DNA from: Escherichia phage ChristineMuster_Bas80
DNA: 47,021 nucleotides
Sequence record: PQ850597.1
Reading direction: 5' to 3' (one strand)
Shown here: positions 5,310-35,401 of the stretch, piece by piece
How positions within the stretch are numbered: position 1 is the first letter of the stretch
Layout of the letters: the number at the start of each line of letters is the position of its first letter
The notes under the pieces: model-generated
Seen by the model: only the letters and a program-made list of their open reading frames with translations
Told to the model about the DNA's origin: nothing
Database searches by the model: none
Position numbers and translations under genes: made by a program

Positions 5310-6243
5310 CGCCAGACTACCCCAGCCGCGCATATCGCAGAGCCTGACCGACCCGTTAGGCGCTGCAGCCCGCCTGTCGAAAATGGACAAGGTGATAACG
5401 CGCAAATACAAACAACTCAGGACTCGTTCGCTTGAGTTGTTTCGCACCATTCCGAGCAGTCAGACCAACGCAGAATCAAGTGGTCTGTATTTCTACGATT
5501 TCAGTAGTGCGCGTGCCGCTACGTTCATGGATGAGTTACAGGAGCTGGTTGACGAGATTCTGCTGGAAGGTGATGATTTCGGTCACGGCAGGATGTGGGC
5601 TAATATGTTCATTGGTGATGCGTATCAGGCCGGGACGCAGAAGGCAAACTCAGAACTATCAAGTCTGTCTCCGGTTTATGCTGAACAGCGACCGATTGCT
5701 GCAATACTCTACAGTGAGCCATATCTGAATCGGCTGCGGCTTGCGTATACAGCTGGTTACTCGGACTGGCGAGGATTGAGTGATTACTCACGCCAACAAC
5801 TGGCATCCGTCATTATGGAAGGCATTGCCCGTGGTGCCAATCCTCGAGATGTTGAGGCTGATATTGTTAAGCGTGTTGACGTGTCACATAGTTACGCGAA
5901 GCAGATAGCGCAGACTGAAATCACCGGAACGCTGCGGCAGGCTAACAGGAGAGAAGTCATTGAGGCTCGCGAGGAATTAGGTATTGAAACGGTGATGCTG
6001 TGGCAATCGGCATTATTGCCTGGTCGAACGAGATTTACTCACGCGGCACGGCACGGGCGGTTTTACGCGCCAGAGGAGATTGACACGTTCTATAGCGAGA
6101 ATGGCAATAGATATAATTGCCACTGTGCACAAGTACCAACATTGATAATGGATGGCAAGCCAGTCATTCTTGAGTCGTCGCAGGAAAGGCTTGATAAGCA
6201 GCGTGAAGCGTGGCAATCAGCCAATAAAAAGCCCTCTAAGTGA
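5284..6243 (+). CDS. Head morphogenesis protein (Mu F / SPP1 gp7-like)
   Basis: ATG at 5284 in frame with track ORF 5080-6243 and overlapping the portal 3' end; C-terminal half has Mu-F-family character (…[20 protein letters not shown]…). Confidence 0.7.
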
Positions 6244-6256
6244 GGGCTTGTTTTTA
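6230..6256. terminator. Rho-independent terminator (bidirectional candidate)
   Basis: agccctc-taagt-gagggct hairpin (6230-6248) followed by tgttttt. Confidence 0.6.
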
Positions 6257-6326
6257 TCTTATCAGCATGCACAGAACAAATACTATTATCGCATAGCACA
6301 ATATCTCTACGACGCTGAATATTGTT

Positions 6327-6935
6327 TTAATCATCAAGTTTCACGCCGGGAATTTTGCCTGCTGCGATGGCTTCATAAATTAGCTTAGCCTCATCCTCGC
6401 GCTTGTAATCTTGCGCTACCATTTCTAATACCGCGCAGATAGATTCAAGTACAGCCTCATGCTTCCTTTCTGCTTCTGTGCGAAATGGGATGAAAACATC
6501 CTTATTGGATGGGGTTATTGCGTAGTAAATCTCACCAGATGGTCTGATAACTATTTTTTCGCCATCAAGACCAATAACCTTGACTTTTCCCCATGACGTT
6601 CCGTTGCTGATATACTCACATTCACACCCAACTGGCGGCAGTCCTTCTCCGTTCCATGCTGAATTTTTCGATGCTGCGAGCGCTGCTTTGTATTGCCAAT
6701 AGGTTACTATCGACTCCTTATGGTCGGAAGATAATGGCGTAGCCCATTCTTCTCCATACCAGAAATGCACAAGGCTATTTCCTGTGTGATGTTTCCATGA
6801 GAACCCCTCATAGTGTGGGTCATTTGTGTCCCATGCGCACAGCGAACCGTCATTATCTTGAGTAATTGACAGCGCGTTTTGAGGCCACCCACCGCGCTTA
6901 GGTAATTCTTGAACCAGTAAATCAATAAGCTTCAT
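6327..6935 (-). CDS. Hypothetical protein (202 aa)
   Basis: ATG at 6935 (MKLIDLL...) preceded by AGGAG; overlaps stop of upstream HNH gene. Confidence 0.5.
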   Translation of the reverse strand: MKLIDLLVQELPKRGGWPQNALSITQDNDGSLCAWDTNDPHYEGFSWKHHTGNSLVHFWYGEEWATPLSSDHKESIVTYWQYKAALAASKNSAWNGEGLPPVGCECEYISNGTSWGKVKVIGLDGEKIVIRPSGEIYYAITPSNKDVFIPFRTEAERKHEAVLESICAVLEMVAQDYKREDEAKLIYEAIAAGKIPGVKLDD

Positions 6936-7407
6936 AATTAAAATCTCCTGCGTATTTAATTCTCGCCTCTTGCGACACAAGCTCTGCCAGCTCAATGTCT
7001 TCGTAGTAGCCCAGATGGATCTGTGTTTTATTTACGCATATCCTTACTCGCCATGAATTTCCGGCAGGATACCAGCTGACTCCCTTCATCCCTGTTTTGT
7101 TTCTGGATGTGATATCCTTGTTGTGCTTATTTTCAGATGAAGTGCATGGCCTTAAGTTGCATAATCTATTGTCATCTCTCACCCTGTTAATATGATCCAC
7201 CTCCTTTGGCATCTCTCCTGTCACGTATAGAAGAGCAAGCCTGTGCGCAAGATAAAGCTTTCCATCAATGCAGATCTGTATGTACCCTTTCCCATTTACC
7301 GACCCAGCCTTTCGACCGCTAAACCCATGTCTTCTTGATTTAATCCACGTGAATTCACCAGATTCAGGGTTATAACTAAGAACACGGAAAAGATCACATT
7401 GTTTCAT
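6922..7407 (-). CDS. HNH endonuclease with AP2-like DNA-binding region
   Basis: Motifs GYIQICIDGKLYLAHRLALLYVTGEMPKEVDHINRVRDDNRLCNLR typical of HNH_3-type homing endonucleases; GGGAGA RBS. Confidence 0.7.
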   Translation of the reverse strand: MKQCDLFRVLSYNPESGEFTWIKSRRHGFSGRKAGSVNGKGYIQICIDGKLYLAHRLALLYVTGEMPKEVDHINRVRDDNRLCNLRPCTSSENKHNKDITSRNKTGMKGVSWYPAGNSWRVRICVNKTQIHLGYYEDIELAELVSQEARIKYAGDFNYEAY

Positions 7408-7700
7408 TTTGTTTCTCCCAATGCTTTATTAACCGCCTCACGCGCATTATCCAGAGCGCGACGCTTGCTTGATGTTGTCCAGACTTTGCCGTCTGCAGAA
7501 TCGTAGCATTCAATCATTTGCTGCGTAGCAATAATCAATTCGGAAATAAGCATGTCGCGATATGCTAACTCAGCAGCAATAGCTGATTTTGAGTGCAATG
7601 ATTCAGAGCTCATGGCGCTAACATGCTGGGAATAAAAGCCACCAATTTCATCAAGGATATCTATATCCCGCTCTGCATACAGATTATTGCTGTCAGTCAT
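7404..7700 (-). CDS. Hypothetical protein (98 aa)
   Basis: ATG at 7700 overlaps upstream stop (ATGA); track start at 7724 also possible. Confidence 0.4.
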   Translation of the reverse strand: MTDSNNLYAERDIDILDEIGGFYSQHVSAMSSESLHSKSAIAAELAYRDMLISELIIATQQMIECYDSADGKVWTTSSKRRALDNAREAVNKALGETK

Positions 7701-7840
7701 TTGATATACTCCATAATCTCGCATTCACGCATCTGCACCAGACTAAATGGTGCAACCACTTTTCCGCACGGACGGATTTTGATTTGCTCAAAATTGAACA
7801 CTTCGCAGCGTCCGTTTTCTTTGAATTTGACCATTACCAT
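7697..7840 (-). CDS. Small hypothetical protein (47 aa)
   Basis: ATG at 7840 with GAGGAA RBS; stop overlaps next start; below the ORF-track length cutoff. Confidence 0.3.
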   Translation of the reverse strand: MVMVKFKENGRCEVFNFEQIKIRPCGKVVAPFSLVQMRECEIMEYIK

Positions 7841-7862
7841 AATTTCTTCCTCACTCATCGTT

Positions 7863-7919
7863 TGATGTAGATACTATGCACCACCACTCAATCTACGTCA
7901 ATAGCCATTGTGATAGAAT
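7863..7919. promoter_or_regulatory. Divergent promoter region with inverted ATCTACRTCA motifs
   Basis: tgatgtagat at 7863-7872 (reverse orientation) and atctacgtca at 7891-7900, then extended -10 TGaTAGAAT at 7911-7919 for the plus-strand lysis genes. Confidence 0.5.
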
Positions 7920-7945
7920 TAATCATTATTTGAACAGGAGGCAGA

Positions 7946-8224
7946 ATGAAACTATCGCAACGCGGCATGGAGGTGTTTGGAATTACCGATGCCGTAGATA
8001 TATCGCCTTACATCACCACTGAGACAACACAGAATCAGTTTGATGCGCTGACAAGCCTTGCCACCGACATTGGCACTGATGCGTTCCGCAAATCAACGTT
8101 GCTGAAGAAACATAATCTTCGCTGCTTCTCATGTGCTGTTGCGCATTTCATCGTGTGGGGCGAGAAGACTGGCAATAAAGCAAAACGCAATGCTGAAAAA
8201 GAGGTTTACTGGTATGGCTATTAG
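7946..8224 (+). CDS. Lysozyme-like protein, apparently N-terminally truncated (GH24/T4-P22 lysozyme C-terminal region)
   Basis: AGGAGG RBS; segment NQFDALTSLATDIGTDAFRKSTLLKKHNL resembles the conserved NQ(F/Y)DAL...FN(I/V)G...STLL block of phage lysozymes, but the N-terminal catalytic region is absent. Confidence 0.45.
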   Translation: MKLSQRGMEVFGITDAVDISPYITTETTQNQFDALTSLATDIGTDAFRKSTLLKKHNLRCFSCAVAHFIVWGEKTGNKAKRNAEKEVYWYGY

Positions 8225-8678
8225 CAAAAACATGAAGGCGTTTCTGGATATGCTGGCGTACAGCGAAGGCACGGATAACGGGCGGCAGAAAACCAATAAC
8301 CATGGCTATGATGTGATTGTTGGTGGCTCGTTATTTACTGACTACTCCGACCACCCGCGCAAGCTGATTAGCCTGCCGAAGCTGGGAATCAAATCCACTG
8401 CCGCAGGGCGCTATCAGGTGCTGGCTAAGTTTTATGATGCATACAAAAAGCAACTGCGCCTGCCAGACTTCTCTCCCGCATCGCAGGACGCCATTGCAAT
8501 GCAGCTAATCCGTGAATGCAAAGCCACTGCCGATATTGAGGCTGGTCGCATTGCTGATGCCATTCATAAATGCCGCTCCCGTTGGGCCTCGCTGCCGGGA
8601 GCTGGTTATGGTCAGCATGAGCAGAAACTGGATAAGCTGATTCAGGTATACAAGGATGCTGGCGGAGTCGTGGCATGA
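8214..8678 (+). CDS. R: Endolysin, lambda R-like lytic transglycosylase
   Basis: Translation KAFLDMLAYSEGTDNGRQKTNNHGYDVIVGG..FTDYSDHPRK...WASLPGAGYGQ is near-collinear with lambda R as recalled; start overlaps upstream stop. Confidence 0.85.
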   Translation: MAISKNMKAFLDMLAYSEGTDNGRQKTNNHGYDVIVGGSLFTDYSDHPRKLISLPKLGIKSTAAGRYQVLAKFYDAYKKQLRLPDFSPASQDAIAMQLIRECKATADIEAGRIADAIHKCRSRWASLPGAGYGQHEQKLDKLIQVYKDAGGVVA

Positions 8679-24812: not shown

Positions 24813-27190
24813 TGGCTGAAGAAGTCGGCGGAATTGTCTATGAAGTCGGGATGGATGTTAAAGGTCTGAAAGCTGGCGCGACAACAGCTAATAAGACTTT
24901 AGATGACCTTGAATCATCACTAAACAAGACCACCGGAGAACTCAACAAGCTGGACAAAGGCGCGCGCAATGCTGGCAGCGGAATGAAGAATGCTGGCGGC
25001 GCAGCTTCAGGGCTTAAAACCAGCATGTCGATGTTGGCTGGCGCAATATCCGTGTCACTGATTATCGAATGGGGAAAGCGATTCCTTGAGGTTGCCGATA
25101 ATATGACACAGCTTCAGGCAAGGATTGCTCGCTTGTCAACAGATGCGAAAACCGCGAACGAAACATTCAGCTCACTGGCAAATATTGCATCAACCACTGG
25201 CGCAAGCCTAAGTGATACCACGAAGCTGTGGGAAACATTGACGTCATCACTGAAAGAGGCTGGTGCTACAAATGCGCAGGTTCTTAACCTTACAGATACC
25301 CTGCAAAAAATAGGTCGAATCGGCGGGTCATCGACCGAAGAAATGGCCAACGCATTACGTCAGTTCGGTCAGTCAATCGCATCTGGCACAATCCGCGCCG
25401 AAGAATTTAACTCCATCCTTGAACAGATGCCTGAACTGGCGCGCCAGATTGCTGCTGGGCTTGGCATTTCAATGGGTGAACTTCGCGCCAGAATGCTTGA
25501 CGGCAAACTGACGGCAGAAGATGCGCTAAATGCCATTCAGGACAGGACAAGCATCGTCAATGCTGAATTCGCAAAGCTACCGCGCTCTATATCTCAGGCG
25601 ACTGGCAGCCTTGAAACATCATTTGCAAAAATGATAGCAAGCATAAACGACGCAACAGGAGCCAGTTCTACCTTTGTTTCAGTTATTGACTCTATTACCT
25701 CAGCAATCAACAGACTAACTGGTCAGACTATAGGTGCGGCAGAGGTTATTTCTGATTTGACATCAACAGCAGAGATGTTCAGTCGCAGAGCAAGAACATG
25801 GTCATGGGTTGGCATTGATGGTTGGGCCGCGCAGAATCAGGCCATAGCGGCGGTAGCAAATCAGGCGGCCACATTGGTCGCGGATATGGATGCCGTCACC
25901 AAATCGACAGGAGAGGCGGCAAAGGCGCAGGCTCATTTGACAGTGCCAAAAGCAGCAGAGAAAGAGAAAAAGAAAAAAGCAACAGGGAAAAGCGCCGAAG
26001 AACGACAAGCTGAGTCAGTGGCTGAAAAGCTGGAGAAATTACGCCAGCAAACCATGCTCAATGCCACATCCACCAGTGAACTCTCCCGCGAACAGGCAAT
26101 CCTCAATGCGCAACAATCGCTTGGCAAGGCAGCCACTCAGGAGCAAATAAAACTGGCCGGTGAGTATGCGGCGAAAATTTGGGATCAGAAGAATGCGCTG
26201 AAGGAGCAGGCAGAAGCGGAGAAGGAAAAGCAGCGTGTAGAAAAATCATATCAGGGACTGCGTTCCATTGCGTCGCCAACCACTGGCATTGACAGTGAAT
26301 ATCAGCAACGTATGGCTGACCTTGACGCCTACACCGCAGCGTACCCGCAGAAAATTACAGAGATTGAACAGACTCGCGCATCGATTGAAGCACAATACCG
26401 CCAGCAGAGAATGGATGCCATGTGGGCTGAATGGCAGCAGCAAAGCCTTGGGGCGCAACTGTTCGGAACCGCACTGGATTCCGCAATGAGCACAGCCTCA
26501 AACAGTATTACCGGATTGCTGACAGGTACAATGAGCGTTCAGGATGCCATGCGTAGCCTCGGCTCTACGGTGCTTAACTCGCTGGTAAACAGCTTCGTCG
26601 AGATGGGTGTGCAGTGGGTGAAATCTGCGGTAATGGGGCAGACAGCTCAGGTGGCAGCAACCGCTACCACAACAGCGGCGCAAACGGCAGGACTAGCAAC
26701 CACCACAGCTGCCTCCACTGCGGCGGCAGCCACTACCACGGCAGCGTGGACTCCGGCAGCAATCGTCGCATCAATCGGTTCATTCGGCGGTGCTGCTGCA
26801 ATTGGGGTTGGTGCTGTTCTCGGGGCACTGGCAATGGGTATCGCTGGCAAGCGAAAAAATGGTGGCCCTGTTAGCGCCGGAAGTATGTACGAAGTGGGCG
26901 AGGGAAACGCACCAGAAATATTCCAAGCCAGTACAGGCAGGCAATACATGATACCTGGCAACTCAGGAAAGGTTATCAGCAACAAAGACCTTGCCGGAAG
27001 TGGTATTGGCTTGATTATAAATAATAATGTTTATAATAGTTCAAGCGGAGCAACAGCAACTACCAATGCCAGAGATAACGGTGATGGTTCGATAACTATT
27101 GAGACATTTATATCCGATATGAATGAAGGCGGACCGATGAGTCAATCCATCTCAAGGAACTTTAATACCAACAGGAGAGCAACAGAGTAA
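24812..27190 (+). CDS. Tail tape measure protein
   Basis: 792-aa ORF, largely helical/Ala-rich with Ala/Thr repeat tract (AATATTTAAQTAGLATTTAASTAAAATTTAAW) and Gly-rich hydrophobic segment. Confidence 0.85.
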   Translation: MAEEVGGIVYEVGMDVKGLKAGATTANKTLDDLESSLNKTTGELNKLDKGARNAGSGMKNAGGAASGLKTSMSMLAGAISVSLIIEWGKRFLEVADNMTQLQARIARLSTDAKTANETFSSLANIASTTGASLSDTTKLWETLTSSLKEAGATNAQVLNLTDTLQKIGRIGGSSTEEMANALRQFGQSIASGTIRAEEFNSILEQMPELARQIAAGLGISMGELRARMLDGKLTAEDALNAIQDRTSIVNAEFAKLPRSISQATGSLETSFAKMIASINDATGASSTFVSVIDSITSAINRLTGQTIGAAEVISDLTSTAEMFSRRARTWSWVGIDGWAAQNQAIAAVANQAATLVADMDAVTKSTGEAAKAQAHLTVPKAAEKEKKKKATGKSAEERQAESVAEKLEKLRQQTMLNATSTSELSREQAILNAQQSLGKAATQEQIKLAGEYAAKIWDQKNALKEQAEAEKEKQRVEKSYQGLRSIASPTTGIDSEYQQRMADLDAYTAAYPQKITEIEQTRASIEAQYRQQRMDAMWAEWQQQSLGAQLFGTALDSAMSTASNSITGLLTGTMSVQDAMRSLGSTVLNSLVNSFVEMGVQWVKSAVMGQTAQVAATATTTAAQTAGLATTTAASTAAAATTTAAWTPAAIVASIGSFGGAAAIGVGAVLGALAMGIAGKRKNGGPVSAGSMYEVGEGNAPEIFQASTGRQYMIPGNSGKVISNKDLAGSGIGLIINNNVYNSSSGATATTNARDNGDGSITIETFISDMNEGGPMSQSISRNFNTNRRATE

Positions 27191-27195
27191 AAAGA

Positions 27196-27222
27196 AGCCC
27201 CGCTATTGCGGGGTTAGCTTTT
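27196..27222. terminator. Hairpin terminator candidate overlapping the stop of the minus-strand gene
   Basis: gccccgc-tatt-gcggggt hairpin then T-rich tract. Confidence 0.5.
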
Positions 27223-28078
27223 CTATCTCCAGCATCAACCTTGGTGTTTTTATTACCCATTCCGTACACCCATCAAACCCAGAAAATCCAGCTCTCTGGA
27301 ATTCATTGTGAAATCTTGATTCTATGCTTGCGGCAGTCATGCCATTTGTTTTTATTATCTTGATGATATCGAATTGAAATGGCGTATCTCTGGTTAATTT
27401 CCTTATCCTCTCTGCTTTATTATGAGTTACACCAATCTTTACCGCCCCAGCTGATACGGAAACAAGAAAGTAAACATATGCCGTTTTGTTTGTCCTCTTA
27501 AACCCATAATCAGCGCATTCAGGGCATCCCTTTCCAGACATATGATCGGAAGTGAATTGCAAAAATTCCCCATGCTTACGGCATATTATTTTAACCTTAA
27601 CCCTAGAATTAACGAATGAATCAACATCATATTGATAAGCGAACGAGTGAACTATATTTGATTTTCTCACAAAAATATCAAACGTTAACTTCCTGTTCTT
27701 GCTGCATGATGGACATCCTGCTCCTGCCATATGATGACTTCTTCTTTGAGTGAATACGCCGTGCTCTCTGCATATTATCTTGATATTTTCTGAAGATACC
27801 TCACCTTCAACCAGGTAATAATCATATTTACATTCATGAATTTCATTAAACCTCTCAATCAGGGAGTGCAGTTTGATTTTTCTTGATTCACGCCCACACA
27901 ACCTGCACCCTCCAACCAAATGAGCGTCAGGCCTTTGTCTAAACTCCCCATGCTCCCTGCAAATTATTGTTAATTTTGTTTTAGCGTCAAAATAAACAGA
28001 TTTTGAGTAATCATATTTGTCGCCGTGCGTGAGCCTTGCACGGCGAATGAATTCTTCAGTAGTTAATCGCTTGCGCAT
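27203..28078 (-). CDS. Zn-ribbon-repeat protein with C-terminal T5orf172/GIY-YIG-like domain (homing-endonuclease-like)
   Basis: Three tandem repeats of about 57 aa each with YDYS and C..HG.F...H..G.GCP.C; C-terminal YVYFLVSVSAGAVKIGVTHNKAERIRKL block. Confidence 0.5.
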   Translation of the reverse strand: MRKRLTTEEFIRRARLTHGDKYDYSKSVYFDAKTKLTIICREHGEFRQRPDAHLVGGCRLCGRESRKIKLHSLIERFNEIHECKYDYYLVEGEVSSENIKIICREHGVFTQRRSHHMAGAGCPSCSKNRKLTFDIFVRKSNIVHSFAYQYDVDSFVNSRVKVKIICRKHGEFLQFTSDHMSGKGCPECADYGFKRTNKTAYVYFLVSVSAGAVKIGVTHNKAERIRKLTRDTPFQFDIIKIIKTNGMTAASIESRFHNEFQRAGFSGFDGCTEWVIKTPRLMLEIEKLTPQ

Positions 28079-34915: not shown

Positions 34916-35401
34916 TTAGAAGGGTATTGAATCATCGAAGTCTATCGGATGCTCATTGCCTCCTTGTATGCTTTGTTGTTTTTGCTGTTGTTGTTGCTGT
35001 TGCGATTGTTGGCCTGATTGCTGTCGTGGTTGCTGCTGACTGGAATCATCACGTTTACCACCAAGCATCTGCATAACGCCGCCCACCTGTGGAATAACAA
35101 TCTCAGTGGTGTATCGGTCTACGCCATTGCTGTCAGTCCACTTACGAGTGCGTAGCTGACCTTCGATATAAACCTGCGATCCTTTGCGAAGGTATTCTCC
35201 TGCAACTTCTGCAAGTTTCCCGAAGATGACAACGCGATGCCATTCAGTTTGCTCTTTCTTTTCTCCTGTTTGCTTGTCCTTCCACTGTTCAGATGTTGCA
35301 ACAGAAAGATTGGCAATTGCAGAGCCTGATGCTGAATATTTAACTTCAGGGTCGTTGCCGAGAGTGCCGACAATAATTACTTTATTTACGCCGCGTGCCA
35401 T
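34916..35401 (-). CDS. ssb: Single-stranded DNA-binding protein
   Basis: OB-fold-like N-terminus ([18 protein letters not shown]...[12 protein letters not shown]), Gln-rich linker and acidic C-terminal tail DFDDSIPF. Confidence 0.9.

Follow-up and report, generated by a model that had tools for sequence, protein, structure and literature searches.

A putative homing endonuclease gene of the HNH type within a long-standing accessory operon of Escherichia phage ChristineMuster_Bas80

The genome of Escherichia phage ChristineMuster_Bas80 (PQ850597.1; 47,021 nucleotides (nt), analyzed at full length and referred to here as the window) carries four minus-strand genes between its head-morphogenesis and lysis genes. 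Comparison with related phages suggests that this cassette is an accessory operon of long standing which has received, by homing, a gene for a 161-amino-acid (aa) HNH protein, and we regard this combined account as likely. As for the movement of the gene itself, it most likely homed into the conserved 5′ end of the adjacent 202-aa gene. The other three genes are predicted to encode soluble, non-structural accessory proteins. All four minus-strand open reading frames (ORFs) of the original prediction, which was made from the window sequence, were recovered at the coordinates it gave. They are listed here with the two tracts on which the homing argument turns.

6327–6935, minus strand: 202-aa gene, member of a large unannotated mosaic family; product soluble, isoelectric point (pI) 5.1.
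6922–7407, minus strand: putative free-standing HNH homing endonuclease gene, 161 aa, with Pfam, PHROG and PADLOC matches.
7404–7700, minus strand: 98-aa gene for an all-helical, acidic, two-module protein.
7697–7840, minus strand: 47-aa gene, first in the operon and the conserved core of the locus; product soluble, pI 8.6, three cysteines.
6915–7467, minus strand: exchanged, co-conversion-like tract, which takes in the HNH gene and reaches ~20 nt into the 5′ end of the 202-aa gene and ~60 nt into the 3′ part of the 98-aa gene.
6912–6935, minus strand: HNH-linked haplotype ATGAAGCTTATTGATTTACTGGTT, the first 24 nt of the 202-aa gene and a putative altered target.

The HNH gene is rare at a site that is otherwise shared. 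Relatives were scored by tblastn in 69 IMG/VR loci anchored on the Mu-F-type head-morphogenesis gene, comprising 31 close relatives (Mu-F at least 89% identical) and 38 distant ones (Mu-F ~63–77%). Only one of the 31 close relatives carries the HNH gene, and this is Shigella phage Sf11, which is also the only one among 46 phage records matching the gene to have it at this slot (98.4% nucleotide identity). In a larger assembly collection, at least 24 contigs encode the identical 161-aa protein, in every case flanked by a PF27050-type gene and a gene of the 202-aa family, and those neighbors vary from 89 to 134 aa upstream and from 182 to 211 aa downstream. Eleven of the contigs were aligned with the window (loci in the comparison carry L numbers). 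All are 98–100% identical to it at the nucleotide level inside 6900–7400, and in ten of them (L008–L017) the adjacent variable segments are only 30–60% identical; in the eleventh, L007, the match to the window continues across the whole 202-aa side. At L007:2530-3014 the identical 202-aa protein is encoded beside a frameshifted HNH copy that ends after residue ~120 and has lost its AP2-like part. This copy reflects either an endonuclease gene in decay, a stage that homing genes are expected to pass through, or an assembly error.

The limits of the transferred tract can be read against the HNH-less Escherichia phage Bas77. The window is ~100% identical to Bas77 over 6300–6911 and 7491–8050 and is Sf11-type between 6915 and 7467, with informative sites switching sharply at 6911/6915 and 7467/7491 by sliding identity. 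Relative to HNH-less alleles, in which the junction reads GGAGAAACAAAATGAAACTTATCGACCTGTTAGTT and surroundings, the gene is a 472-base-pair (bp) insertion directly behind the seven bases, ATGAAAC, that open the 202-aa gene. It uses the old Shine-Dalgarno sequence and start codon, and hence begins MKQ. The 202-aa gene in turn starts at ATGAAGC behind a new AGGAG Shine-Dalgarno sequence, both provided by the 3′ end of the HNH gene. The HNH gene would accordingly have entered a Bas77-like genome by gene conversion, in a tract of ~555 bp made up of the 472-bp insertion and 20–60 nt of flank on each side. In doing so, the insert would have taken over the old Shine-Dalgarno sequence and ATGAAAC start and supplied AGGAG and a new start to the 202-aa gene, so that the operon stays coupled.

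The start of the 202-aa gene differs with the presence of the HNH gene. Fourteen HNH-plus rows (the window, two records of Sf11 and the 11 contigs) all open the gene with ATGAAGCTTATTGATTTACTGGTT or a one-base variant, as do none of 23 HNH-minus rows, every one of which carries ATGAAACTTATCGACCTGTTAGTT or close variants, whatever lies upstream. Between ATGAAGCTTATTGATTTACTGGTT and the ATGAAACTTATCGACCTGTTAGTT consensus there are seven differences, all synonymous. The HNH-plus haplotype has one exact match in IMG/VR (Sf11) and one on a metagenome contig, which carries the HNH gene as well (97.5% identity); the HNH-minus haplotype has 18 exact matches in IMG/VR.

This HNH gene is thus sporadically present at a fixed site between conserved genes of syntenic relatives, is far more conserved than its background and has co-converted flanks, which are the features by which homing genes are recognized. 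Free-standing endonucleases of phage T4 (the seg and mob genes) likewise insert between conserved genes and co-convert their flanks (PMC2988022). The pattern is consistent with the expected footprint of intronless homing, namely short co-conversion tracts and an altered, presumably resistant, target. We infer from the aligned sequences an endonuclease activity, its target and a protective effect of the seven changes, as follows. During mixed infection, the enzyme would cut genomes that lack the HNH gene, within or close to the highly conserved 5′ end of the 202-aa gene. Repair from the HNH-plus genome would then copy the gene together with the seven linked synonymous changes, and the new allele would resist cutting.

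The protein itself has the expected makeup. The Pfam HNH_3 profile (PF13392; His-Me finger) matches with an expectation value (E) of 3e-12 and 46.3 bits against a cut-off of 24.8, residues 52–94 covering profile positions 1–45 of 46 (sequence ...EVDHINRVRDDNRLCNLRPCTSSENKHN...). Over its full length the protein matches PHROG 99, an HNH endonuclease family (E 5e-66), and in PADLOC it matches only the generic "homing endonuclease" model (E 9e-5). An HNH domain followed by AP2 is described as a phage homing-endonuclease architecture in a passage of PMC10448857 citing Magnani 2004. The proposal that the gene encodes an HNH protein with an AP2-like region was therefore well founded, with HNH_3 above threshold and AP2 below it. 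In related seszw phages, paralogous HNH genes carry the annotation "pathogenesis-related transcriptional factor and ERF protein".

Three points tell against homing. The AP2-like match (residues 106–152) reaches only 19.8 bits (E 1e-3), below its cut-off of 33.3; a PDB sequence search with the HNH protein returned only noise, with no solved structure close; and a single donor lineage could have passed on the linked synonymous changes as hitch-hikers, with no resistance to cutting. The last of these forms part of another account, in which the HNH gene spread by ordinary homologous recombination at conserved junctions as an inactive or non-site-specific passenger. Every alternative ORF found in the slot is bounded by the same short junction (see below), so cassette exchange does occur without an endonuclease; internal modules of the neighboring genes recombine too, and one HNH copy is frameshifted. 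Such passive spread is nevertheless hard to square with copies that are 98–100% identical in many strongly diverged backgrounds and have sharp, short identity shoulders on both sides, since these need a transfer rate much above that of the neighboring segments. The catalytic HNH_3 domain is also intact and well above threshold, in the architecture of a recognized homing-endonuclease family. We consider passive spread unlikely and retain homing as the explanation for the HNH gene.

The remainder of the cassette is not a newcomer. A 4.1-kilobase (kb) region around it matches 192 deposited siphovirus genomes at 80–95% identity, the closest being those of Escherichia phages Bas77, Bas78 and Bas79, Shigella phage Sf11, swi2, IME207 and Skate. 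Bas77–81 are placed in a "Skatevirus" cluster of O-antigen-dependent siphoviruses with genomes of 46–48 kb (BASEL paper, PMC11990801). The local order is portal, Mu-F-type head-morphogenesis gene, minus-strand cassette, two lysozyme-like genes, holin and spanin. In the close relatives, the 47-aa gene is found in 30/31, the conserved C-module of the 98-aa gene in 26/31 and a full or substantial gene of the 202-aa family in 27/31. Three more (L020, L021 and L024, the DS8 type) keep only the last ~26 codons of the 202-aa family, and in one (L038) the cassette is wholly absent. At least the C-terminal half of the 202-aa family lies directly after Mu-F, on the opposite strand, in 30/38 distant relatives. 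A homologous gene pair lies between the portal and head-protein genes of Klebsiella Jedunavirus myophages and between the lysis and head genes of one Roufvirus.

Gene content at this position varies. Bas77 has genes for 202, 71, 98 and 53 aa; Sf11 for 279 aa, HNH, 98 and 88 aa; IME207 for 39, 199, 69, 99 and 47 aa; and DS8 only for 32 and 47 aa. The 32-aa product, DS8 gp49 (L003:1527-1625), corresponds to the last ~26 codons (IY.AIAAGKIPGVKLDD) of an otherwise deleted 202-aa-family gene, and annotation of DS8-type phages gains from the recognition of these small ORFs as remnants. The general layout appears to be promoter, 47-aa gene, PF27050-type gene, variable slot, 202-aa-family gene and bidirectional terminator.

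The cassette as a whole had been described as another accessory insertion into the structural region. This part of the original prediction does not hold: because the locus occupies the same position across close and distant relatives (30/31 and, in part, 30/38), the cassette is better seen as ancestral than as a recent insertion. The comparisons point to a long-standing accessory locus in which the content of the slot turns over and only the HNH gene is recent. The accessory, non-structural character of the genes is supported, in that none of the four has a structural annotation or homology. Comparative genomics had been proposed as a check, and structural roles combined with conservation in all relatives had been named as evidence to the contrary; the comparison found conserved presence with variable content, no structural role, one relative without the cassette and three with remnants.

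The operon is closely packed between predicted transcription signals.

7873–7901, minus strand: sigma-70-like cassette promoter, −35 TTGACG at 7901–7896, 17-nt spacer, −10 CATAGT at 7878–7873; predicted by scan.
7911–7919, plus strand: extended −10 (TGaTAGAAT) of the lysis-gene promoter, which faces away from the adjacent cassette promoter; read from the sequence.
6229–6256, both strands: bidirectional intrinsic terminator, hairpin 6229–6249 with an 8-bp stem of which 5 are GC pairs; scan and sequence.
7404–7418, minus strand: junction motif GGAGAAACAAA-ATGA, a Shine-Dalgarno sequence plus overlapping stop/start, here preceding the HNH gene.

ATGA stop/start overlaps join the 47-aa and 98-aa genes (7697–7700) and the 98-aa and HNH genes (7404–7407), and the HNH and 202-aa genes overlap by 14 nt (6922–6935). 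The start choices of the original prediction proved correct. The 202-aa family alignment opens at MKLIDLL, which corresponds to the ATG at 6935, and the 47-aa start at 7840 is preceded by a Shine-Dalgarno sequence (GAGGAA-N7-ATG) conserved among relatives. The ATG at 7858, which gives the 53-aa version in the Bas77 annotation, is not conserved and is missing in several relatives; the first cassette gene should be annotated as 47 aa, not 53 aa.

Transcription of the four genes as a coupled operon, from a promoter in the divergent region 7863–7919 to the terminator, had also been proposed. The overlaps, the conserved intergenic region and the scan support this layout, with a predicted transcription start at ~7866. 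Across 11 relatives, the 106-nt intergenic region has 92% mean column identity, the TTGACG and CATAGT hexamers are invariant or nearly so, and the lysis-promoter motif TGTGATAGAAT (plus strand, TGnTAGAAT) is almost invariant; the consensus scan did not call the lysis promoter because its −35 is weak. Numbers of sites in the region were compared with shuffled-sequence expectation. Promoter-like sites are not above chance (6 found, 5.2 expected), which speaks against the promoter assignment, so the cassette promoter call is drawn from position and conservation rather than from the scan. For terminator-like sites, the count exceeds expectation (7 against 2.0). The terminator would be common to the plus-strand head genes and the minus-strand cassette, with a strong T-run in the plus direction and a weaker one (TTTATT) in the minus direction. 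The bracketing of the cassette by a terminator at 6230–6256 and the lysis promoter is therefore borne out by a hairpin on both strands and a conserved extended −10. No RNA family in Rfam matched within 5900–8300. A promoter-like site that is conserved, a terminator, and dispensability in some relatives suggest an accessory unit of the moron type.

In HNH-less relatives, GGAGAAACAAA-ATGA ends the PF27050-type gene and runs directly into the 202-aa gene. Where the slot instead holds one of the alternative ORFs of 60–75 aa, each of these ends with the same 15-nt junction (minor variants). The slot ORFs checked (L001, L004, L025, L028, L032, L035, L036, L040–L042 and L046) are flanked by direct 15-nt copies, and recombination between the copies could be a simple route for their gain and loss. 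Since the HNH insert comes with a 3′ junction of its own, only one copy is present in the window; the motif was rejected as a genome-wide repeat, as it occurs once in the window.

The 202-aa protein had been reported to have no recognizable features, and it went unrecognized by every library tried. It has no match in Pfam, NCBIfam or PADLOC, its PHROG matches are only to families of "unknown function" and a family profile search of PDB sequences was empty. Its relatives number 2,993 at E ≤ 1e-3 in a 90%-clustered database, none of them named, as against 58 clusters for the co-transcribed 47-aa gene; in a 50%-clustered library, the family comprises 977 clusters. In 220 deposited phages found by tblastn, it is always a "hypothetical protein".

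Alignments of the family show a conserved framework at residues 1–18 (MKLIDLLVQELPKRGGWP), ~76–107 (...QYKAALAAS..AWNGEGLPPVGCECE), 148–158 (..FRPLRTEAERK) and 183–202 (IYxAIAAGKIPGVKLDD). The three intervening segments (~19–75, 108–147 and 159–182) are swapped wholesale for unrelated sequences. In 108 members with clean anchors, a sample biased towards query-like types, they fall into at least 19, at least 19 and at least 17 sequence types in 45 combinations, and four-gamete-positive pairs indicate recombination between modules. Synonymous-site identity at the internal anchors (0.61–0.73) is no higher than in neighboring conserved genes (0.68–0.82), so the anchors appear to be held by selection on the protein, and we rejected the idea that they are DNA-level recombination sequences. 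At the 5′ end of the gene the value is somewhat higher (0.87 within each haplotype class). In Sf11 gp44 (L002:1647-2486, 279 aa), the first variable module and the ...AWNGEGLPPVGCECE linker are duplicated in tandem, and in other family members of 260–390 aa the match to the query is split into two or three stretches.

Structure prediction had been suggested for the 202-aa and 98-aa products, and it gave generic fold matches and no structural role. In the 202-aa model, the central variable module (108–147) resembles a Tudor/SH3-like barrel, a small barrel of five strands. Sequence identity to the Tudor/PWWP, UvrD C-terminal, bL19 and BirA C-terminal barrels is 4–19%, with no sequence-level relationship found. 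In contrast to those barrels, the one here is the most variable module of its family, with at least 19 sequence types.

The wider distribution of the family is informative as to when it may act. In the P22-like phage BTP1 (L005), a member is the last gene of the ea region, adjoining xis and int; in Serratia phage Eta, one lies directly upstream of exoVIII and bet; and in Pseudomonas phage Medea1, ERF and YqaJ genes follow it a few genes downstream. At seven chromosomal loci in Erwinia, Atlantibacter, Yokenella and Rahnella (L091, L093, L094, L098, L100, L101 and L104), an integrase gene follows 0.6–2 kb downstream on the same strand, with xis in between in L091, as in BTP1. ExoVIII homologs lie upstream of the family member in L099 and L104. 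The 202-aa family thus appears to be a typical early-left-operon accessory gene of temperate phages, a context that speaks for early, non-essential functions aimed at host or competitors and against a structural role. Kinship with Ea22-like proteins was rejected: neither the 202-aa and 98-aa proteins nor the BTP1, IME207 and FZ14 homologs matched Ead_Ea22 (PF13935), and in the same scan BTP1 gp24 did (E 2e-27).

Our best guess, offered tentatively, is that the 202-aa protein is a modular binder with a role in early host interaction or counter-defense; it would act early, binding a host or rival-phage factor during host takeover or in counter-defense. Several results detract from this. The AlphaFold2 model is moderate (predicted template modeling score 0.44, with residues 38–74 below 50 in predicted local distance difference test (pLDDT)), and the fold matches of the 202-aa and 98-aa models are generic. 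PADLOC-DB contains no defense or anti-defense family matching the 202-, 98- or 47-aa protein. Skatevirus phages are reported to be markedly sensitive to restriction-modification systems and the Old system (PMC11990801), and so are not obviously well equipped against those particular systems. The same paper holds no discussion of the cassette locus, and literature on the matched PHROG and Pfam identifiers, the BTP1 locus tags and Sf11 yielded nothing.

Other roles were weighed against the same evidence. The adjacency of the 202-/98-aa gene pair to portal and Mu-F-type genes in Skatevirus, Roufvirus and Jedunavirus would suit head-morphogenesis or DNA-packaging accessories, with the HNH protein as a packaging nuclease like the terminase-associated HNH of HK97-type phages. 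Yet the cassette lies on the opposite strand with its own promoter and terminator, is lost or reduced in the close relatives noted above and shows no structural homology; the temperate-phage members sit in the early-left operon beside int/xis and recombination genes, and the HNH gene is missing from ~97% of close relatives and does not adjoin the terminase. We consider this the least likely of the alternatives for the accessory genes and highly improbable.

That same early-left setting might instead point to DNA recombination or repair, or to the lysogeny/excision decision, with no part in conflict with host defenses. The window phage and its relatives are, however, virulent-type siphoviruses, and no integrase was seen in the surveyed region. 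In lambdoid phages, moreover, assorted accessory genes usually reside beside int/xis, and module turnover as extreme as that seen here is unusual for core recombination functions; such a role is doubtful. A weapon in inter-phage competition or superinfection exclusion, not aimed at host immunity, would accord with a gene that is hyperdiverse, modular and present in both temperate and virulent phages, and that adjoins a putative homing endonuclease, which would act only in co-infections. Many exclusion proteins are membrane-bound, whereas none of the four proteins has a hydrophobic or membrane segment, on which ground membrane or secreted proteins were rejected in general; except for the endonuclease there is no PADLOC match, and no toxin-like domain was found. 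We judge this role rather improbable. More speculatively, and with little confidence, the early host-directed reading can be extended: the 202-aa family could be an unrecognized, widespread class of modular phage effectors, a selected framework with three exchangeable recognition modules (one being the hypervariable Tudor/SH3-like barrel) that are swapped among phages to track changing host or rival-phage targets, defense systems for example. Its invariant 5′ end would also serve as a homing site, where repeated conversions would contribute to the reshuffling.

Neither of the two leading genes of the operon has a usable match in Pfam, NCBIfam or PADLOC, and their PHROG matches are only to "unknown function" families, which for the 47-aa protein is PHROG 21280. 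The 58 clusters of the latter are all at least 62% identical. The 98-aa protein is a fusion of two independently distributed modules, and its model has four helices (pLDDT 76). The N-module (residues 1–57; 7530–7700; ...YAERD..LD..GGFY..HVSAMT.E.LHSKS.IAAEL..RD) recurs at 48–77% identity, always unannotated and joined to other C-termini, in T5-like Klebsiella phages (~110 kb), G7C-like podophages (~68 kb), Seuratvirus, and Vibrio and Acinetobacter phages. The C-module (residues 58–98; ...GKVWTTSSKRRALDNARAAVNKALGETK / ...GKVWTTSSKRRALDNARxAVNKALGETK) is specific to this locus. Homologs 84–93% identical to the 98-aa protein bear the precomputed label PF27050 "Phage_P22_Y8K6", some of them marked weak; a local Pfam scan of the window protein gave no PF27050 match, the model being probably missing from that copy. 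In P0044 (290 aa, on a 3.7-kb contig), a 98-aa-type protein is fused in frame to a 202-aa-type protein at ...GETK/MKLIDLL. Either the fusion is genuine or a single-base error arose at the ATGA overlap; because a one-base slip there would give the same product, P0044 is weak evidence for a functional link between the two.

Comparison with known systems places the cassette among familiar elements. The HNH gene is closest to free-standing HNH homing endonucleases of phages, such as the T4 mob genes, the HNH+AP2 proteins of Magnani 2004 and the ICP1 "IPA-HNH" genes, and encodes an N-terminal HNH_3 nuclease followed by a putative AP2-like region. Free-standing phage HNH endonucleases share further traits with the gene described here: insertion between conserved genes without disruption, sporadic presence among close relatives, near-identical copies in diverged genomes, co-converted flanks and occasional frameshifts. 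Our case differs in that the insertion lies at a stop/start overlap in a coupled accessory operon and reuses the neighbor's start codon, the co-converted flanks are very short (20–60 nt), the AP2 match is sub-threshold and the activity is putative. Moron cassettes and the early-left genes of lambdoid and P22-like ea/b regions resemble the cassette in consisting of small, functionally uncharacterized genes that lie between conserved modules and have a promoter and a terminator of their own. As here, gene content differs among close relatives and the proteins, for example the Ea22-like mosaic proteins, keep conserved ends around variable middles; the P22-like ea region also includes 202-aa homologs adjoining xis. 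Unlike those genes, the present locus is ancestral and fixed in position, not a sporadic single gene; it resides in a virulent-type phage and has no Ead_Ea22 match.

The cassette is ordinary in kind, since accessory cassettes, like homing endonucleases, are frequent in phage genomes, and is unusually well documented here. It offers a clean natural example of apparent intronless homing outside T4, with an insertion defined to the nucleotide, a short co-conversion tract and a candidate target-immunity haplotype, and homing is directly testable with HNH-less Bas77, from the public BASEL collection, as recipient. The part most worth following up is the large, strongly mosaic 202-aa family. With ~3,000 clusters at 90% and ~1,000 at 50%, it is a very large unannotated family of framework and swappable modules, whose genes occupy the early-left operon in many prophages of enterobacteria and, in virulent phages, cassettes on the opposite strand. 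Hypervariable early genes of this kind are good candidates for host-takeover or anti-defense screens.

Several further elements lie around the cassette or elsewhere in the window. A second gene of homing-endonuclease type (27203–28078, minus strand; 291 aa; T5orf172/MUG113 with DUF723 and a treble-clef zinc-finger region) is placed on the opposite strand within the tail-gene block, directly after a 792-aa gene at 24812–27190. The 161-aa product of 34916–35401 was rejected as a second HNH copy, as it is a single-stranded DNA-binding protein (SSB). Relatives carry endonuclease-type genes around the cassette at L008:5084-5437, L017:5036-5389, L009:4268-5170 and L014:1831-2322; T5orf172/MUG113 genes lie between portal and Mu-F or directly 3′ of Mu-F, and a second HNH_3 gene lies between the lysozyme gene and the cassette. 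The neighborhood of the cassette thus appears to be a hot spot for endonuclease-type elements. On the lysis side, the 92-aa "endolysin" (7946–8224, plus strand) covers only positions 55–114 of the 125-position Phage_lysozyme profile and is fragment-like; a 154-aa lysozyme-like gene (8214–8678, plus strand) overlaps its end. In L010, L011 and L014, one 146-aa Phage_lysozyme gene stands in place of this 92-aa and 154-aa pair.

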